Under the pieces are notes generated by a model. It saw only the letters and a program-made list of their open reading frames with translations. It did not search any database and was not told the DNA's origin. The position numbers and the translations under genes are program-made. A stretch of DNA of 64,000 nucleotides from an uncultured Oscillospiraceae bacterium (GTDB lineage Bacteria; Bacillota; Clostridia; Oscillospirales; Ruminococcaceae): positions 47-64,046 of the forward strand of contig CAKSKU010000013.1 of assembly GCA_934465295.1 (NCBI GenBank). The letters run 5' to 3'. Below are positions 143 through 35,497 of this stretch, piece by piece; position 1 is the stretch's first letter; each line of letters opens with the position of its first letter.

Positions 143-396
143 ATAAAGAAAGCGCATACCCGAAAGGATATGCGCTCTGCTTTTTAAAGTGAACCGCCTT
201 GCCGCCATGTGCAGCATAAAACCCGCACTCAAGCAGGTGGGCAACAGCCCAACAGTTTCACGCTCCCTACGTCCGTGAACCCACACATCTAATGTGGCGG
301 GAGGTCTGCAATCCCCTGTCGGAGTCTGAATCCCTTTAATAATGTGTTGGATTATAAAAACACACTTTATCGGTCAAAGCAGTAGACTCTTTTCTT
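143..396 (-). ncRNA. candidate ~250-nt small RNA, family not recognised
   Basis: Downstream of the DUF1292 gene terminator. It has its own promoter and an intrinsic terminator (stem 151-158/170-177 followed by UUCUUUAUAU). The GC-rich body 185-335 sits in an AT-rich spacer. The only ORF is a 63-aa frame without an SD. Confidence 0.4.
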
Positions 397-449: not shown

Positions 450-749
450 TTATTCGTACATATCATTGAGCTTTTCAAGGAACATATTTCCGATGCGCTC
501 ATACTCTTCGTCACTGTCAATAGTAACGAGGATCTCCTCATCGTTTTCATCATATTCAGACTTGAGAACAACAAGCTCAGTATCAGCCTCGATCTCCTTT
601 GTCGGATCTTCATAATAAGGAACGAGAGCATAATAGTGGTCTTCACCTACGTCCATCTCGTCAATCTTTTCAAAAGTCTGCTCTACGCCGTCTTCATCAA
701 CGAGGGTGTAGATATCAGCACCTGAATCCATGTCAAATTCTTCAGCCAT
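450..749 (-). CDS. DUF1292 (UPF0473) family small acidic protein
   Basis: 99 aa, very acidic, with the pattern typical of DUF1292 (YYALVP...EIL). SD AAAGGAGG lies upstream of the ATG. Confidence 0.8.
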   Translation of the reverse strand: MAEEFDMDSGADIYTLVDEDGVEQTFEKIDEMDVGEDHYYALVPYYEDPTKEIEADTELVVLKSEYDENDEEILVTIDSDEEYERIGNMFLEKLNDMYE

Positions 750-835: not shown

Positions 836-893
836 TATGTAAAATTAATAAAAAATCAGCACAAAATATATCTAAGATTTCAGCAGAAAACTG

Positions 894-922
894 TTGACTT
901 TTACTAAACGATATGGTATATT
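894..922 (+). promoter_or_regulatory. promoter of the large non-coding unit
   Basis: TTGACT (894-899), 17-nt spacer, TGgTATATT extended -10 (914-922). Confidence 0.6.
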
Positions 923-1580
923 ATACTCAAGGAAAGAGAAAAAGGTGAAACCAAAAGGTACACCAAATACTCTGACCCAAAGCATTCAGGATAAACGGAA
1001 TGAAAGATCACATAAATCGTCAGTCGGTGCAGGATCTTCACCGGTATCCAATAAAATGAAAATAATGCTTGGAAAGGAAGGACGAGTCCAATGGAATTGA
1101 ATGAAGAGCAGTCTATCGGGAGTACCCTTTGCGGCTCGTGCATAATGACCTTTTAAGGAAAATAAAAGCGGAGTTTAAATGTAAAACATAAGATGTTTCA
1201 CTCCGATGCGATAGTGTATCGAAAACAAAAACTTAAAAGCAAAAAGCTAAGCCGCATATCTCGAAAGTTTCAGCATGGGATATACGGATTTTTTATACCC
1301 TTTTACAAAATCCCGAAGCTTCTCCAACCGAGGGGTACTCTTAGACGAAGAGAGTGTTTACGCCTTAAGGCTTTACATAAAAGGCAATAATTGTGAAAGG
1401 TGATTCCAATGGAATAAAATTTACTGACAAATTTCACAGAAAGGTTTTGAATACCGATGCAGTAAATTTCTGAAAAAGCTGATATAAGACTTATCTGAAA
1501 GAAGTGAAGTCGTATGAAAATTTTGACGAGGTACTTGTACATCTGAAAGATTGGAGTGAGACCACCGGATAATTCAGCTT

Positions 1581-1918
1581 CGCATCTATGATGCATAGGA
1601 TAAAATAAAAATAAGGAGCGATGAACTATGAAAAATCTGAAACGTCGTTTCCATGATCAAAATATCCGATAAATCCATAAGGGAGTGAGTCCAACAGGTT
1701 ACGTCAGCGATGTCCGATAGGACGGGAACTTAAAACAGGATCATCAAATGGTCAAATTCGCATCTTCGATGCACAAAATAAATTTAAGGAGCGATGAACT
1801 ATGAAAAATCTGAAGCGTCGTTTCCATGATGAAAATCTTTGATCAATACCGCAAGGGAGTGAGTCCAACAGGTTACGTCAGCGATGTCCGATAGGACGGG
1901 AACTCAAAACAAATCCAT
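1581..1918 (+). repeat. tandem duplication (~178-nt period) inside the non-coding unit
   Basis: 1581-1740 aligns with 1759-1918. The cores 1613-1660/1786-1833 and 1679-1737/1853-1911 are almost identical, and the linker between them has diverged. Confidence 0.85.
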
Positions 1919-2250
1919 AAAGAAATGAAGAGATCTACAAATGGTAATATATAGGACTTCTCAAAGATTCTGAAAAGTAGGAGTGAATTCCAATGTGCTG
2001 ATTTTCTAAAAAGCCGATTCCATCAAAAATAAAGGAGTGTCCGCATATGTGGAAGCTTGGGATAATGGATAAAGCTATCAGAAATTTCAGGAGGTAAGTC
2101 CAATGAAGCGATAAAAACTGCTCAAACTCATTGAAAGCGAGTGGTGATTATGAAAAATGTTCTCAGATTACTTGGTTTGAAGAAATTCTGAAGAAACGGA
2201 GTGAGACCACCAGAACATTTAAAGGCTTCTTGCCAACTATAAATAAATCA

Positions 2251-2281
2251 AGCAGCTGTCAGGTCGGCAGCTGCTTTTTTA
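2251..2281. terminator. intrinsic terminator, probably bidirectional
   Basis: Stem AGCAGCUG (2251-2258) / CAGCUGCU (2268-2275) followed by a T6 run. It lies 3 nt from the stop of the convergent radical SAM gene. Confidence 0.7.
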
Positions 2282-2283
2282 TA

Positions 2284-3183
2284 TCATTTTATAATTCCGT
2301 TCAGGTCAAAATCAGGCGTGTATTCTTCCTTTGCCGAGGATTTTTCCTGCATAAATCCCTTAAATCCAAGCTCTTCTGCCCTTTTCAGCACGGAATTGTA
2401 TTCAAAAGTGCTTATCCTGCGTGAAATCTCAGGAAATTCCGAGCTTCGGTAAAACGGAGTGTATTGGCTCATCAAACTCAGCAGAATATCCTCCGTCCCC
2501 CAATGCGAAGCGATCTCTTCAAGCACCGCTATCGAATCGTGACGATGACTCGGCAAAGTCAGATGACGAATTATTATCCCCTTTTTCATCAGACCGTCCT
2601 CACCGAACTCAGCCGCACCAACCTGACGAAACATCTCGTCTATCGCCGCACATACGACCTCAAAATAATCCCCTGCCGCCGAATATTTCAACGCAATTTC
2701 ATCATCATAATATTTGAGATCGGGCAAATAAATGTCAATATACCCCTCCAGCATTTTCAGCGTTTCAACCCGTTCATATCCGCCCGTGTTGTAAACTATC
2801 GGTATGTTAAGCTTCCCTTTCACACGCTCCAAAGCCGAAATTATCTGCGGAACAAAATGCGTCGGACTGACAAGATTAATGTTGTGCGCACCTTTTTCCT
2901 GCAATTCGAGAAAAATTTCGCCAAGCCGCTTCTCAGTTATCACCTGCCCGAAATTTTCGGACGAAATTTTGTAGTTCTGGCAAAATACACACTTCAGACT
3001 GCACCCCGAAAAAAATACCGTCCCCGAACCGTTCTCGCCCGATAAACAAGGCTCTTCCCACTTGTGCATATAAGCCTTAGCCGCACGAAGCTCTGCTCCC
3101 TCACCGCAGAATCCAACACCGTTAATTCGGTCAGCGCCGCATTTTCTCGGACAAAGCTCACATTTCGTAAAATCATATTTCAT
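2284..3183 (-). CDS. radical SAM protein (PflX/pyruvate formate-lyase activase-like)
   Basis: 299 aa with an N-terminal CxxxC cluster region (CELCPRKC ... CSLKCVFCQN), typical of COG1313-type radical SAM enzymes. Confidence 0.8.
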   Translation of the reverse strand: MKYDFTKCELCPRKCGADRINGVGFCGEGAELRAAKAYMHKWEEPCLSGENGSGTVFFSGCSLKCVFCQNYKISSENFGQVITEKRLGEIFLELQEKGAHNINLVSPTHFVPQIISALERVKGKLNIPIVYNTGGYERVETLKMLEGYIDIYLPDLKYYDDEIALKYSAAGDYFEVVCAAIDEMFRQVGAAEFGEDGLMKKGIIIRHLTLPSHRHDSIAVLEEIASHWGTEDILLSLMSQYTPFYRSSEFPEISRRISTFEYNSVLKRAEELGFKGFMQEKSSAKEEYTPDFDLNGIIK

Positions 3184-3247
3184 TTTAGTTGCCTCTTTTT
3201 TTAACTAATGTCAGCCCTTTAATATGCTCAATAAATTGGAATTTGTT

Positions 3248-3706
3248 CTACAATAATTTTTCTACTTCAATCAGTAACCTTATTTTCAAATCTTCCAATT
3301 CTATATCAGTAGGACGGTTCTCATCACTATACATTTTCTCCATAGGATACCACCAAACAGGACCTTTTCCATTGTTTCCGTAATTCTCTAAGTCACCGTT
3401 TGCTCTCGGGAATAAATGCCAATGAAGATGCGTATCTCCATTGCCTAACAATTCATAATTCATTTTTTCTGCACCAAAAGCGTTTGAAACTGCTTCTGCA
3501 ACAATAGACATTTCCTCCAAGAATTTCAGCTTTCGTGAATGATCTAAATAAAATAATTCTGTCTTGTGTTCTTTACAAAGAAATAACGTGTAACCTTTAA
3601 AATGCTGATTGTCACCGATAACTACATATCCCGTTTCCAATTCCTTAACGAAGTATGGGTTTGTTCCGTTGTTAATCATCTTAATTCTATCGCATATAAA
3701 GCACAT
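3248..3706 (-). CDS. HIT family hydrolase
   Basis: Histidine triad HLHWHLFPR. The start is set at MCFICDRI, behind SD GGAGGG. Confidence 0.8.
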   Translation of the reverse strand: MCFICDRIKMINNGTNPYFVKELETGYVVIGDNQHFKGYTLFLCKEHKTELFYLDHSRKLKFLEEMSIVAEAVSNAFGAEKMNYELLGNGDTHLHWHLFPRANGDLENYGNNGKGPVWWYPMEKMYSDENRPTDIELEDLKIRLLIEVEKLL

Positions 3707-3924
3707 ACACCAACCCTCCAAACCTCTATTTTTCAGCTAATTACCGCTCAACTGACGGTAAAATAATTATACCATACACCTTTTGAAAAGTCAATTCAAA
3801 CGGAAAGCGCAATGCTCCATTATCCGACCTCTGTAATTATCCCCATAAAAAACAACACCCGTTTGAGTGCTGTGATGAATAAAACTGTTCTGCAAATTGA
3901 AATTTGAAATACAAAGATATAAGG

Positions 3925-4596
3925 TTACTTGTTTACTGCATTTCCAAAATAGTAAAAGTCCTCATGCATTGCATACCAGCCGGTCAGCACTTCATGACGA
4001 ATCCCTTTGTCATCTGTGTATATTAACTGCATTTGCCCCAAATCACCCTGTGCACTCCATGTGCGGTAGAGTCTATGTTTATCCTCATATTGTGTCCAGA
4101 CTTTTTCGTGCCCGCCGAAATTCTCAAAAAAGCTATCATCTGTTACAGTTATCGGTATTACCGTATAGAGTAAATCAAGAGGTATGGTATTTAATACTTT
4201 TACAGAAATATAAGCCGAAAAATCGTCTGACCAGAGAACATCATCAAAACGGCAAAGTACAGCACAGGCTTTACCGATATCATCCGGACTTTCAGCACAG
4301 TCCCATCCGTTTAAGAACATTTGCCACGGTTCAAAAAGCGTAGTGAATGTAGCGCCTAATTCCTCGTCAAAAGGTGCTGTAACCTTGAGTATACGCTTTT
4401 CTCCGATTGTCGGAATATGATTCGTGTAAAGCCATTTTCTGTCTTTGACCGGCTGAGACAATTCTTCATGTTCGCATTCCATCCAAGCCAAGTTGTATCC
4501 AATATCATGTATACCTGCACACTCAATCATCTTTGGCTTTCTATTTTGATTATCTTTCGCAACACGAGATTTGCAACAGGAACATAAAAAATTCAT
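3925..4596 (-). CDS. hypothetical protein
   Basis: Long ORF with no motif recognised. The start is chosen at the internal ATG preceded by GGAGA. The ORF could extend to 4647. Confidence 0.5.
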   Translation of the reverse strand: MNFLCSCCKSRVAKDNQNRKPKMIECAGIHDIGYNLAWMECEHEELSQPVKDRKWLYTNHIPTIGEKRILKVTAPFDEELGATFTTLFEPWQMFLNGWDCAESPDDIGKACAVLCRFDDVLWSDDFSAYISVKVLNTIPLDLLYTVIPITVTDDSFFENFGGHEKVWTQYEDKHRLYRTWSAQGDLGQMQLIYTDDKGIRHEVLTGWYAMHEDFYYFGNAVNK

Positions 4597-4700
4597 TACA
4601 TCATCTCCATTGTAGACAAATATAGAAAATTCCAATTTACCAATCATTTCAAATAACTAAACTCATTATACCAAATTCCACCCACCATTTCAAGTTTTTC

Positions 4701-4729
4701 TTGAAAATAAACATAGCTTCTGTTATAAT
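4701..4729 (+). promoter_or_regulatory. promoter of the SDR/thrE-like genes
   Basis: TTGAAA (4701-4706), 17-nt spacer, TATAAT (4724-4729). Confidence 0.5.
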
Positions 4730-4765
4730 ATATATAAATAGTTCATCGGAAAGGACGGAATAAAT

Positions 4766-9997: not shown

Positions 9998-10250
9998 AAA
10001 AAAAGCCTTGCCCCAAATAACAAGGGGCAAGACTGTAATATCCTGCGGTACCACCCAAATTCGCCCATAAAAGAGCGCACTCGAAAGCATTATAACGTAT
10101 GCAAAACGTTCTTCCTACTTGATTTTCTCGTTCAGTTGACCCTCATAAGTCCATTCACTGAGATATTGCGCACCGCTTTTCACCAACTGCGGCTCTCTGG
10201 AAGCGAATTGATCCCAATTACTAATCTTAATCATCGGTTTACTTCTATAA
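9998..10250 (-). promoter_or_regulatory. T-box riboswitch leader, probable Trp (UGG) specifier
   Basis: Minus strand: AGAGAG and GGUGAAAA stem-I elements; a GAAUGGA specifier-loop context (UGG at 10151-10153); the T-box AAUUUGGGUGGUACCGCAGG (10042-10061); terminator stem plus U7 (9998-10033). Confidence 0.75.
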
Positions 10251-33784: not shown

Positions 33785-35497
33785 TTAAAAAAGGTAGTAT
33801 TTCTGCGTAAGAGGAAGCTTTTTCGCCGCTTCGCAGGTTATGAGCTTTCCGTCAACGGTTACACGGTAATTTTCGGGATCGACCTTGATATCGCCCGTTA
33901 CATCGTTGAAGCGCATATCCTTTTTGCCGATATTACGGCAGTTTTTCACGGGGAGAACTATTCTCTGAAGTCCGAGGCGCTCCTTGATGCCGTTTTCAAC
34001 AGCCGCACCCGATACAAAGCTTATGCAGCAGCGCTTTACGGCAAGTCCGTTTGCGCCGAACATCTTTGTGTAAACGACAGGCTGAGGTGTCGGGATAGAA
34101 GCGTTCGCATCACCCATTTTTGAAGCGCAGATAAAGCCGCCCTTGATTATCATTTCGGGCTTTACGCCGAACATTGATGGCTTCCAGAGTACAAGATCGG
34201 CGAATTTTCCGACCTCGACCGAGCCGACATAATCGGCGATGCCGTGCGTGATCGCAGGGTTAATCGTGTATTTTGAAACATAACGCTTTATTCTGAAATT
34301 ATCATTGCGTTCGCTGTCCTCGGGGAGAGTTCCTCGCTGATCTTTCATCTTTGAAGCCGTCTGCCAAGTCCTTGTGATGACCTCGCCGACACGTCCCATT
34401 GCCTGCGAGTCGCTCGACATCATACTGAAAATGCCCATATCGTGGAGAACGTCCTCAGCGGCAATTGTCTCGGGACGTATTCTCGAATCGGCGAAAGCAA
34501 CGTCCTCTGGGACTTTGCTGTCAAGATGATGGCATACCATAAGCATATCAAGATGCTCGTCTATCGTGTTGACGGTGAAAGGCATAGTCGGGTTCGTGGA
34601 CGAGGGAAGAACGTTCGGGAACGCTGCCGCCTTGATAATGTCGGGAGCGTGTCCGCCGCCTGCACCCTCGGTGTGGTAGGTGTGGATAGTTCTGCCGTTT
34701 ATTGCGGCGAGGGTATCCTCTACAAAACCGCCCTCGTTGAGAGTGTCGGTGTGGATAGAGACCTGAACGTCATATTTGTCCGCAACGGTCAGAGCCTTGT
34801 CGATAACGGACGGAGTTGCGCCCCAGTCCTCATGTATCTTCAAGCCGCAAGCACCTGCTTCGACCTGCTCGGTGAGGGTCTCGATGCCGGCGCTGTTGCC
34901 CTTGCCGAGATAGCCGAGGTTCATCGGGTATTCTTCCGAAGCCTCGAGCATTTTTTCAATGTTGAATCTGCCCGGTGAGCAAGTGGTAGCGTTCGTGCCG
35001 TCGGCAGGACCCGTACCGCCGCCTATCATCGTTGTGATGCCCGAATAAAGCGCAGTTTCGATCTGCGTCGGGCTGATGAAGTGGATATGCGTGTCGATGC
35101 CGCCAGCGGTGAGGATAAGTCCCTCGCCTGCGATAGCTTCGGTCGATGCGCCGAAAACGAGCGAGGGCGTAACGCCGTCCATAATGTCGGGGTTGCCAGC
35201 CTTGCCGATGCCGCAGATCTTTCCGTCCTTTATGCCGATATCAGCCTTGTAGATGCCCGTTGAGTCGATAACGACTGCGCTTGTTATCACCGTGTCGGGA
35301 CATTCGCTGTCAGGTACGGAGCAGGACTGTCCCATACCGTCACGGAGCGACTTTCCGCCGCCGAATTTTGCTTCTTCGCCGTAAACGCAGTAGTCCTTTT
35401 CGACCTCGGCGATGAGCGAAGTATCACCCAGACGAATTCTGTCGCCCGTTGTAGGGCCGTACATATCAGCATACTGCTTTCTTGACATTTTGAACAT
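33785..35497 (-). CDS. ureC: urease subunit alpha
   Basis: 570 aa, with the MGQS, HxH (THIHF), KIHEDWG and MVCHHL motifs. The start is placed after the ureAB stop. Confidence 0.95.

Follow-up and report, generated by a model that had tools for sequence, protein, structure and literature searches.

In leader-peptide attenuators such as trp, erm and cat, translation of a short open reading frame (ORF) remodels the RNA helices that overlap it. The sponge RNAs CsrB and RsmZ present many GGA motifs at high density in the loops of short hairpins, and 6S RNA is a sponge for RNA polymerase. Lambda bar is an example of a minigene. Minimal ORFs bind ribosomes without making a product in the start-stops of Escherichia coli (10.1101/520783), and the same is true of a minigene in the axe-txe toxin-antitoxin operon (PMC8708949). 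In Bacillus subtilis, ribosomes held at a very strong Shine-Dalgarno (SD) sequence block RNase J1 on the hbs mRNA (PMC5737220), and ribosomes at a very strong SD of the polycistronic small-peptide mRNA yrzI block RNase J1 and stabilise the RNA (PMC12067863). The SD-like elements known as STAB-SD bind the 30S subunit or the ribosome and likewise stabilise the RNA (PMC4113751, PMC5737220). Here we describe an element that runs from a promoter at position 894 to a terminator ending at position 2282 of a 64,000-nucleotide stretch of contig CAKSKU010000013.1, from an uncultured Oscillospiraceae bacterium; the whole stretch is called the window below. STAB-SD, minigenes, the yrzI mRNA and the sponge RNAs each share single features with this element, and none of them combines these features. 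Its parts would work like these known things, and the function given to it here is a proposal. We see an even chance that it is a translated, self-structured RNA in which the engagement of ribosomes matters more than most of the peptides. To our knowledge no bacterial RNA with this architecture has been described, and literature searches on large RNAs and small ORFs in Oscillospiraceae, and on the DUF1292 family encoded next to the element, brought up nothing relevant and no RNA of this architecture.

The element is predicted to form a single, independent transcription unit, about 1.35 kb long, on the plus strand. The near-consensus promoter with an extended -10 that a preliminary description of this DNA had placed at 894-922 was recovered by a promoter scan as a sigma-A type promoter on the plus strand (TTGACT-17-TATATT, with TG upstream of the -10), and its -35 and -10 hexamers are nearly invariant across all lineages. 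Transcription probably starts near A929, judging from the spacing to the promoter. The strong terminator described earlier was found by a terminator scan at 2250-2282 (+), with an 11-bp stem, 6 GC and a T-run. Promoter and terminator are kept in all relatives, and the changes in the terminator stem are compensatory (GCAGCUG/CAGCUGC, GCGGCUG/CAGCCGC, GAGCUG/CAGCUC and ACGCUG/CAGCGU). Between the two, the longest ORFs reach 97 aa, as had been noted before; ORFs of this class are conserved in no relative examined, and a long ORF exists in no lineage. The preliminary description had been unable to match the stretch to OLE, ROOL, GOLLD, raiA, RNase P, tmRNA, 6S or SRP RNA, and had suggested a comparison with all Rfam models. 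The models of Rfam 15 bear out that judgement: over 750-2400, even at E <= 10, they gave three chance matches only, of 14-16 bits, and none matched the element at the gathering score in the window or in the 10 related loci scanned. The element therefore belongs to no Rfam family tested, OLE, ROOL, GOLLD, raiA, HEARO, 6S, tmRNA, RNase P and SRP included, and no known protein family matches it either.

Homologues of the element were found in 15 sequences from about 11 lineages (nhmmer E-values 1e-70 to 0; flanking proteins 70-95% identical). They belong to metagenome-assembled genomes of uncultured Oscillospiraceae or 'Ruminococcus sp.' from gut and rumen, and the element is seen in independent assemblies from NCBI, ENA, JGI and Logan. 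Scanning genomes for the radical SAM protein encoded beside the element turned up a homologous non-coding stretch at two loci (L001 and L002). In metagenomes, a conserved 21-mer recovered four conspecific human-gut copies and two chance matches inside a gene. The latter two are non-homologous: the 21-mer GGCAATAATTGTGAAAGGTGA falls there where an unrelated gene begins (protein MAIIVKGE...; L081 461-481 and L085 6816-6836). On all contigs retrieved with DUF1292 proteins of 72-85% identity, the 1.3-1.5 kb upstream of the DUF1292 gene are free of genes, and nhmmer located the element in the gap of all DUF1292-derived loci searched; L108 was assigned by its L103-like synteny. Gene callers call nothing in the homologous gaps of 1.3-1.8 kb except two isolated ORFs of about 50 aa, which we read as spurious. 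The idea that the locus is a decayed gene, or an artefact of assembly or annotation, has nothing to recommend it beyond the missing annotation, and it is effectively excluded by the comparative data: a gene-free unit of 1.3-1.8 kb is kept with its promoter, terminator and internal order at 70% flanking-protein identity, independent assemblies carry it, and no lineage holds a remnant. A long ORF conserved in the homologues, which the preliminary description had named as the mark of a decayed gene, was looked for and is absent in all lineages.

Instead, the element carries a series of very short frames. Listing the ATG frames with a preceding SD in each sequence gave the same ordered set everywhere, which amounts to about 10 tiny frames of 2-21 codons in the window (Table 1, ORFs A to J). 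One option raised in the preliminary description, a polycistronic array of micro-ORFs, fits these data well, for starts, frames, lengths and stops are kept across the roughly 11 lineages, indels are in frame and, in close comparisons, substitutions are biased to the third codon position. The indels within the micro-ORF frames measure 3, 6 or 9 nt, and the stop codons swap among UGA, UAA and UAG with their position unchanged. An in-frame deletion has shortened ORF-A to 20 codons in one lineage, and the other frames over the span of ORF-A have stops in 7-8 of 13 sequences; over the spans of A, C, D, F, H and J, both alternative frames are stopped in 54-100% of the sequences. Peptide counterparts of C, D, F and J occur in 3-5 of six other lineages, as against 0-2 for the other frames and for all minus-strand frames. 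Counted by codon position, substitutions are distributed 90/85/118 over all lineages (p = 0.04), 63/72/92 over six phylogenetically independent pairs and 7/10/26 over the three closest independent pairs, which suffer least from saturation and misalignment. In these three pairs, 14 of the 37 changed codons are synonymous by our own count, modestly above the expected random fraction. Since the excess is so small, purifying selection on the amino acids looks weak. The frames are thus maintained, with the amino-acid sequences under weak to moderate selection.

A close precedent for such a transcript is yrzI (spyTA), also from a Firmicute and also with several tiny ORFs; it has an exceptionally strong SD, a ribosome-protected RNA and translation-dependent decay, and encodes up to four peptides, two of which are described as a toxin-antidote pair (PMC12067863). 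Several conserved small ORFs on one transcript are found in the element as well (six families and the mini-ORFs), and protection by ribosomes may be expected of it by analogy. Unlike yrzI, the element has a folded 5' domain and about 10 frames that range from 2 to 21 codons, two-codon ones among them, and its motif is repeated, in part in copies that lack a start codon. No similarity of its peptides to those of yrzI/S1025 was seen by eye, the peptides being too short for search tools, and no toxin-like peptide was evident. With yrzI/spyTA as precedent (PMC12067863), the element could be a small-peptide operon, in which the 21-aa product of ORF-A and another five or six peptides, basic or hydrophobic and 9-16 aa long, are effectors and the repeated motif is a shared, duplicated ribosome-binding site (RBS); the peptides could, for example, bind the very acidic DUF1292 protein encoded alongside. 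The integrity of the ORFs, the in-frame indels and the third-position bias in close pairs agree with such an operon, and so do the conserved residues of ORF-D ([FY]H[DN]LNI), ORF-J (NVL..L) and ORF-A (E.Q..S) and the duplication of paralogous modules as units. However, the peptides diverge fast while the flanking motifs are nearly invariant, half of the strong motif copies have no start codon, and the sequences of ORF-A and ORF-F change together with their RNA partners (see below). An ORF of two codons, the second of them variable, cannot encode an effector, and homology to known peptides was not established. We therefore regard the operon as rather unlikely, and ORF-A and ORF-D may nonetheless yield functional peptides also when ribosome engagement is the main point.

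The two-codon frames follow a strict rule. All 23 frames driven by the repeated motif (GAGUGA..CC(R)AUG) have exactly two codons, the second of them variable, a length found at 10% of control ATGs. They consist of an SD, an AUG, at most two sense codons and a stop, in the manner of minigenes and start-stops, which have 0-2 sense codons and act via occupancy of the ribosome or of tRNA and not through a functional protein (PMC8708949, 10.1101/520783). Whereas known minigenes occur singly, within genes or ahead of them, the element has 2-4 per transcript, with one shared extended motif and exactly two codons across lineages. The distance from the stop codon of a longer frame to the motif core GGAGUGAG is fixed in the same manner, at 6 or 7 nt in 38 of 40 modules (C 11/11, F 11/12, J 12/12, E 4/5). 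The core of a module can accordingly be written as an ORF of 9-16 codons, a stop, 6-7 nt and then GGAGUGAG(U/A)CC(R). Within the window, a tandem duplication of 174 nt (1574-1747 and 1748-1921) has doubled ORF-D together with its type-2 module (repeat families D1, D2 and D5). The window and the four conspecific contigs have two such units and the other species a single one, and L097 and L093 carry separate duplicated modules of their own. The array evidently evolves by module duplication.

The repeated motif itself is strongly concentrated in the element. GGAGTGA occurs seven times in the 64 kb, six times within the element and five of these on the plus strand, and it is missing from all 70 ordinary gene starts examined in the window; four of the eight window occurrences of TCCAATG lie within the element, all on the plus strand. 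GAGTGA is enriched over shuffles of the element (z = 6.7), AGGA has 16 occurrences on the sense strand and none on the antisense strand, and GGA occurs 34 times where 23 are expected, or about once per 40 nt. The preliminary description had counted about 15 copies. The enrichment stands, as do eight strong copies, the ones it had listed (1071-1090, 1396-1408, 1553-1566, 1679-1707, 1853-1881, 1980-1992, 2089-2102 and 2198-2211), two of which arise from the species-specific duplication; the remaining motif-like sites are 6-7 ordinary SDs of micro-ORFs and not equal copies. Complementarity to the 3' tail of 16S rRNA, also proposed there, is borne out by predicted duplexes of -12 to -16.5 kcal/mol with a canonical Firmicutes tail assumed from general knowledge, compared with a mean of -8.1 kcal/mol (5th percentile -14.6) at gene starts. 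Two parts of this tail, CCUCC and GGA, have their complement in the motif. The spacer between SD and AUG (GAGUCCR) is uniform across modules, unlike in ordinary genes, and together with GGAG it pairs with both segments.

Three types of motif can be told apart. Type 1 reads GGAGUGAGUCC(R)-AUG-NNN-stop. Type 2 (AAGGGAGUGAGUCCGACAGGUUAGGUWAG, followed by a hairpin) and type 3 (GAUUGGAGUGAGACCACC(R)GA) have no start codon; they carry ACA or CCR at the position of the type-1 AUG and yet rank with the best-conserved blocks of the alignment, with predicted duplexes to the canonical tail of -13.9 to -14.9 kcal/mol. The copies at 1553, 1683, 1857 and 2198 have the motif without an AUG, as the preliminary description had remarked. 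Read in triplets, type 3 is GGA GUG AGA CCN CCN, of which the third positions of both CCN alone vary, and the UCA GCN that comes after the motif likewise varies at its third position. UGA read-through, or a coding reading of type 3 (GVRPP), was rejected on account of stops that may be UGA, UAA or UAG, a spacing of 6 or 7 nt and the lack of a consistent start; a start at the ACA of type 2 (ACA GGU UAG) was rejected as well, the stop not being conserved. By sequence, types 2 and 3 resemble STAB-SD elements (cryIIIA of Bacillus thuringiensis, hbs of B. subtilis) in their strong complementarity to 16S rRNA without a start codon at initiation distance, an SD-like sequence that does not start a protein (PMC4113751, PMC5737220). 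STAB-SD are single elements in the 5' untranslated region of a normal gene (PMC4113751, PMC5737220), whereas the element has at least four internal start-less copies with a longer conserved sequence, a fixed position 6-7 nt past stops, and no long gene.

Sites of this kind could also act by titration, the remaining option of the preliminary description. In a sponge or decoy RNA, the GGA and GGAG motifs would titrate a CsrA-like protein or free 30S subunits, and the short ORFs would evict or recycle ribosomes. The element resembles CsrB/RsmZ and, in concept, 6S RNA in being a stand-alone RNA with many SD-like, GGA-containing motifs that has 6S RNA, itself a sponge for RNA polymerase, in its locus. 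Enrichment of GGA, AGGA and GGAG on the sense strand only and the conservation of start-less motifs are in keeping with a sponge. In Firmicutes, CsrA is antagonised by FliW. Type-3 motifs can, by our own reading of the sequences and the fold, occupy a hairpin loop closed by UCUG/CAGA or AUCUG/CGGAU, but most other copies lie outside simple hairpin loops in the folds. Unlike in CsrB/RsmZ, moreover, the density of sites is far lower, and the motifs are linked to start and stop codons. Nothing in a sponge calls for codon bias or for ORF frames to be kept; here frames, starts and stops persist across lineages and third positions are biased, and the element would not, on this showing, be an untranslated RNA. 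We consider a sponge unlikely. No convincing complementarity between the motif and the neighbouring 6S RNA was seen, judged by eye.

Predicted RNA structure and reading frames are interlocked in the element. Its 5' domain of about 330 nt is predicted to have ORF-A as one side of the long-range helices P1-P3, which enclose two hairpins. In every lineage, codons 8-21 of ORF-A form a duplex with sequence 150-200 nt downstream, and the paired sequences are lineage-specific (GGGAGUACCCUUU/GAGGGGUACUCUU in the window, CAAAGAAUAUCC/GGGUAUUCUUUG in L097, ACAGACAGUCCGCAG/...GGGUUGUCUGU in L103); RNAduplex gives it energies between -21 and -41 kcal/mol, z falling as low as -5.3, and the P1-P3 architecture also appears in independent minimum free energy (MFE) folds. 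Codons 5-10 of ORF-F are in every lineage complementary to the RBS of mini-ORF I (2089-2102), with z about -2 to -4 in most. The hairpins change in sequence and remain paired. In H-a, GGAGU/ACUCC becomes GGAAGU/ACUUCC and the apical AAACAU/AUGUUU becomes AAGC/GCUU or GCGGG/CCCC. At one and the same place, the stem after the type-2 motif reads GUCC/GGAC, CGGU/ACCG, CGGC/GCCG, CGCU/AGCG, GCUGCG/CGCAGC or CGGCU/AGCCG. The hairpin after the type-3 motif at 2198-2234 varies as GGC/GCC, GUGAC/GUCAC and GGUAAU/AUUACC, and the one after the 1553 motif, GCAUC-UAU-GAUGC, is GCGUU../..AACGC in relatives. Because MAFFT left the type-2 hairpins out of register, a positional test replaced the formal pair count; in its strict form, 9 of 17 have the hairpin against a background of 1.7%, and the other eight begin 2-3 nt past the allowed offset. 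The fold of the 5' leader has z = -2.15, with RNAalifold pairs showing double changes in the close clade.

These data bear on another option of the preliminary description, a structured RNA built from reiterated modules. It is supported for the 5' domain and the local hairpins, which pair with lineage-specific sequences; a single reiterated structural module is not what is found, as RNAalifold finds no consensus fold for the C and J modules and such a fold was rejected. Thermodynamic stability was dropped as evidence of structure, the folding z-scores of the domains being a modest -0.2 to -2.2. The element shares with OLE, GOLLD, ROOL and raiA its size class, a Firmicute host and some long-range structure, and differs from them in having no covariance-model match, a weak thermodynamic signal and conserved frames. 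Were it a large structured RNA akin to OLE, GOLLD or ROOL, its frames would be by-products and the motif an element of structure or multimerisation. The quasi-palindrome UCCAAUGGA at the starts of ORF-A and ORF-B (1087-1098 and 1403-1414), which could in principle mediate RNA-RNA dimerisation, would suit such a role, and in 5 of 10 lineages the MFE folds bring both start regions together in a pairing that closes the whole 5' domain. Helices that stay paired with different sequences across lineages, and the absence of called genes, also suit a structured RNA. Starts, stops, frames and two-codon lengths, however, are conserved well past structural need, the third-position bias is present, and the consensus fold and the z-scores are as just described, which makes a purely structural RNA very improbable.

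The pairing of ORF-A with the mid region and of ORF-F with a downstream RBS amounts to predicted short ORFs overlapping alternative helices, and the element, with ORFs of 9-21 codons overlapping RNA helices, resembles leader-peptide attenuators in this respect. Unlike them, it has its own terminator, varying downstream neighbours, serial ORFs and no visible amino-acid or antibiotic logic. Since no regulated gene follows and a conserved terminator ends the unit, the element is not a leader-peptide attenuator.

How, then, might such an RNA work? The most conserved features are sites of ribosome binding, starting, stopping and unwinding, and for this reason we favour ribosome engagement, and not most of the peptide products, as the selected property. 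Ribosomes would enter at the strong RBS-like motifs, translate the tiny frames and, after terminating, pass to the SD-like motif 6-7 nt downstream, and there the captured ribosomes would either re-initiate on a two-codon frame or stay on a start-less site. Translation of ORF-A would melt its helices with the mid region, and translation of ORF-F would melt the helix with the RBS of mini-ORF I, so that ribosome traffic would propagate along the RNA and remodel it. Dense ribosome binding should also make the RNA stable in a Firmicute. Candidate outputs are the sensing or buffering of translation capacity, or a role in trans. One specific form of this idea, to which we give little weight, is a decoy messenger for ribosomes, a translational counterpart of 6S RNA that buffers or reports the pool of free ribosomes. 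An abundant and stable RNA would then capture 30S subunits or 70S ribosomes on extended SD sites, either start-less or with two-codon frames, and translation-dependent melting of helices would load and release ribosomes according to translational capacity, possibly together with the acidic DUF1292 protein.

Several points weigh against the reading of the element as an RNA selected for ribosome engagement. Translation was deduced from sequence evolution, and the codon-position bias becomes weak once distant lineages join. ORF conservation is partly due to RNA pairing, since ORF-A lies in P1-P3 and ORF-F is the complement of a downstream motif. The long-range helices come from RNAduplex and the comparison of MFE folds, and the z-scores of the domains are unremarkable. 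The canonical 16S tail used for the duplexes may not be that of the host. Types 2 and 3 are conserved beyond the SD (GUCCGACAGGUUAGGU and GACCACC) in a way that ribosome binding does not explain, and this leaves room for a protein or RNA partner. Finally, the relay has no regulated downstream gene and no identified partner, and thus no output. If the reading is nevertheless true, a group of Oscillospiraceae widespread in gut and rumen keeps a dedicated, strongly promoted RNA that uses translation itself as its gene function, in what would be a new way; its conserved features would be sites for ribosome binding, frames of two codons and SD traps without a start codon, wired into RNA helices. 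Neither a protein nor a classical non-coding RNA fold would underlie such a function. It would add one more large bacterial RNA of unexplained role, from loci missed by gene callers and Rfam alike. The element offers a compact natural test case for termination-reinitiation coupling, standby or non-productive 30S binding, minimal ORFs and the function of DUF1292/YrzB.

The genes around the element differ in how closely they are tied to it. In closer species, the order radical SAM gene, 1.35-kb gap, DUF1292 gene is retained; in species whose radical SAM protein is 70-76% identical, the element lies away from the radical SAM gene and is still divergent from the DUF1292 gene. When 80 radical-SAM loci were searched with nhmmer, the element was found in the two closest only, and it is hence not tied to the radical SAM gene. 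An array of precursors of ribosomally synthesised and post-translationally modified peptides served by the radical SAM protein was rejected, as the adjacency is limited to the close clade, is convergent there and is lost elsewhere. The gene 3' of the element differs by lineage (a radical SAM gene, a PF04018 gene or an ABC transporter) and is often convergent. The PF04018 gene, for a VCA0040-like membrane protein, is found in L101-L105 and L108 at about 1190-2045 (-), on the same strand as the element there and past its terminator. As the neighbours vary and DUF1292 stays, the element is autonomous, ancient in the clade and tied to DUF1292 only. The invariant box between their divergent promoters (Table 1) could be a site for a shared regulator or an UP element. 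6S RNA comes after the DUF1292 gene in 8 of the 11 sources scanned, that is, the window and 7 of 10 related loci (L001 4331-4532, L002 5855-6056, L087 6627-6828, L105 3958-4159, L106 3861-4063, L103 5274-5475 and L108 5273-5473), and in L103 and L108 an MFS gene is inserted between the two. The conserved locus reads as a micro-ORF RNA divergent from a DUF1292 gene that is followed by 6S RNA.

Table 1. Features of the element and its neighbours in the window, from 5' to 3' on the plus strand
Feature	Position	Strand	Codons	Sequence	Remarks
6S RNA	187-388	-			Rfam RF00013; downstream of DUF1292 gene
DUF1292 (YrzB-like) gene	450-749	-			Pfam match; divergent; sole neighbour kept in every lineage
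Invariant box	859-872			GCACAAAATATATC	Between divergent promoters of element and DUF1292 gene; identical in 10/10 aligned sequences
5' leader	929-1070	+		CAAGGAAAG (invariant); AAAGGUGA (SD-like, near 5' end)	Hairpin
ORF-A RBS motif	1071-1090	+		GGAAAGGAAGGACGAGUCCA	GAGTCC(A/G)ATGG invariant; predicted 16S duplex -16.0 kcal/mol
ORF-A	1091-1156	+	21	MELNEEQSIGSTLCGSCIMTF	Codons 8-21 are 5' strands of P1-P3; same start and stop position, open in 15/15 sequences
Hairpins H-a and H-b	1169-1221	+		GGAGU...ACUCC, variable apical stem (H-a); CGAUA-GUG-UAUCG (H-b)	Pairing-preserving changes
3' strands of P1-P3	1231-1342	+			
3' strand of P3	1231-1239	+		ACUUAAAAG	
3' strand of P2	1249-1258	+		AAGCCGCAUA	
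3' strand of P1	1328-1342	+		CCGAGGGGUACUCUU	
RBS motif and mini-ORF B	1396-1417	+	2-12 in relatives	AAAGGUGAUUCCA; AUG GAA UAA	Motif invariant; peptide sequence unconserved
Micro-ORF C	1514-1546	+	10 (range 10-14)	MKILTRYLYI	Intact in 13/15 sequences
Type-3 start-less motif	1553-1594	+		GGAGUGAGACCACC	6 nt past ORF-C stop; then hairpin GCAUC-UAU-GAUGC
Micro-ORF D, copy 1	1628-1672	+	14 (range 10-14)	MKNLKRRFHDQNIR	Conserved [FY]H[DN]LNI; intact in 15/15; in-frame 9-nt deletion in one lineage
Type-2 start-less motif and hairpin, copy 1	1679-1723	+		AAGGGAGUGAGUCCAACAGGUUACGUCAG	Hairpin GUCC-GAUA-GGAC
Micro-ORF D, copy 2	1801-1842	+	13	MKNLKRRFHDENL	
Type-2 motif and hairpin, copy 2	1853-1897	+			
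Micro-ORF E			10		In some lineages only
Micro-ORF F	1941-1973	+	10 (range 10-12)	MVIYRTSQRF	Intact in 14/15 sequences
Type-1 motif and mini-ORF G	1980-2001	+	Exactly 2, every lineage	GGAGUGAAUUCCA; AUG UGC UGA	6 nt past ORF-F stop; MC in window; MY, MH, MA, MS elsewhere
Micro-ORF H	2047-2097	+	16 (range 11-22)	MWKLGIMDKAIRNFRR	Intact in 15/15 sequences; stop overlaps next SD
Type-1 motif and mini-ORF I	2089-2114	+	2-3, all lineages	AGGAGGUAAGUCCA; AUG AAG CGA UAA	MKR in window; predicted 16S duplex -16.5 kcal/mol
Micro-ORF J	2150-2191	+	13 (range 9-13)	MKNVLRLLGLKKF	Intact in 14/15 sequences; in-frame 6-nt deletion in L002/L091
Type-3 start-less motif	2198-2234	+		GGAGUGAGACCACC	6 nt past ORF-J stop, spacing kept in 12/12; then AGAACAUUU and hairpin GGC-UUCUU-GCC
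Radical SAM gene	2284-3183	-			Neighbour, convergent with element

The region adjoining the element locus, 3184-4764, is a strain-level indel: a HIT-family gene (3248-3721, -) and an ORF of 240 aa without a Pfam match (3925-4647, -) are absent from the conspecific L082 and L086. Elsewhere in the window, a T-box leader was identified at 10020-10243 (-) (Rfam RF00230, 117.8 bits). A match of 99 bits to the Helicobacter Rfam family '5_ureB_sRNA' at 35053-35345 (+) most likely reflects the conserved coding sequence of ureB, a urease gene, and not a small RNA.

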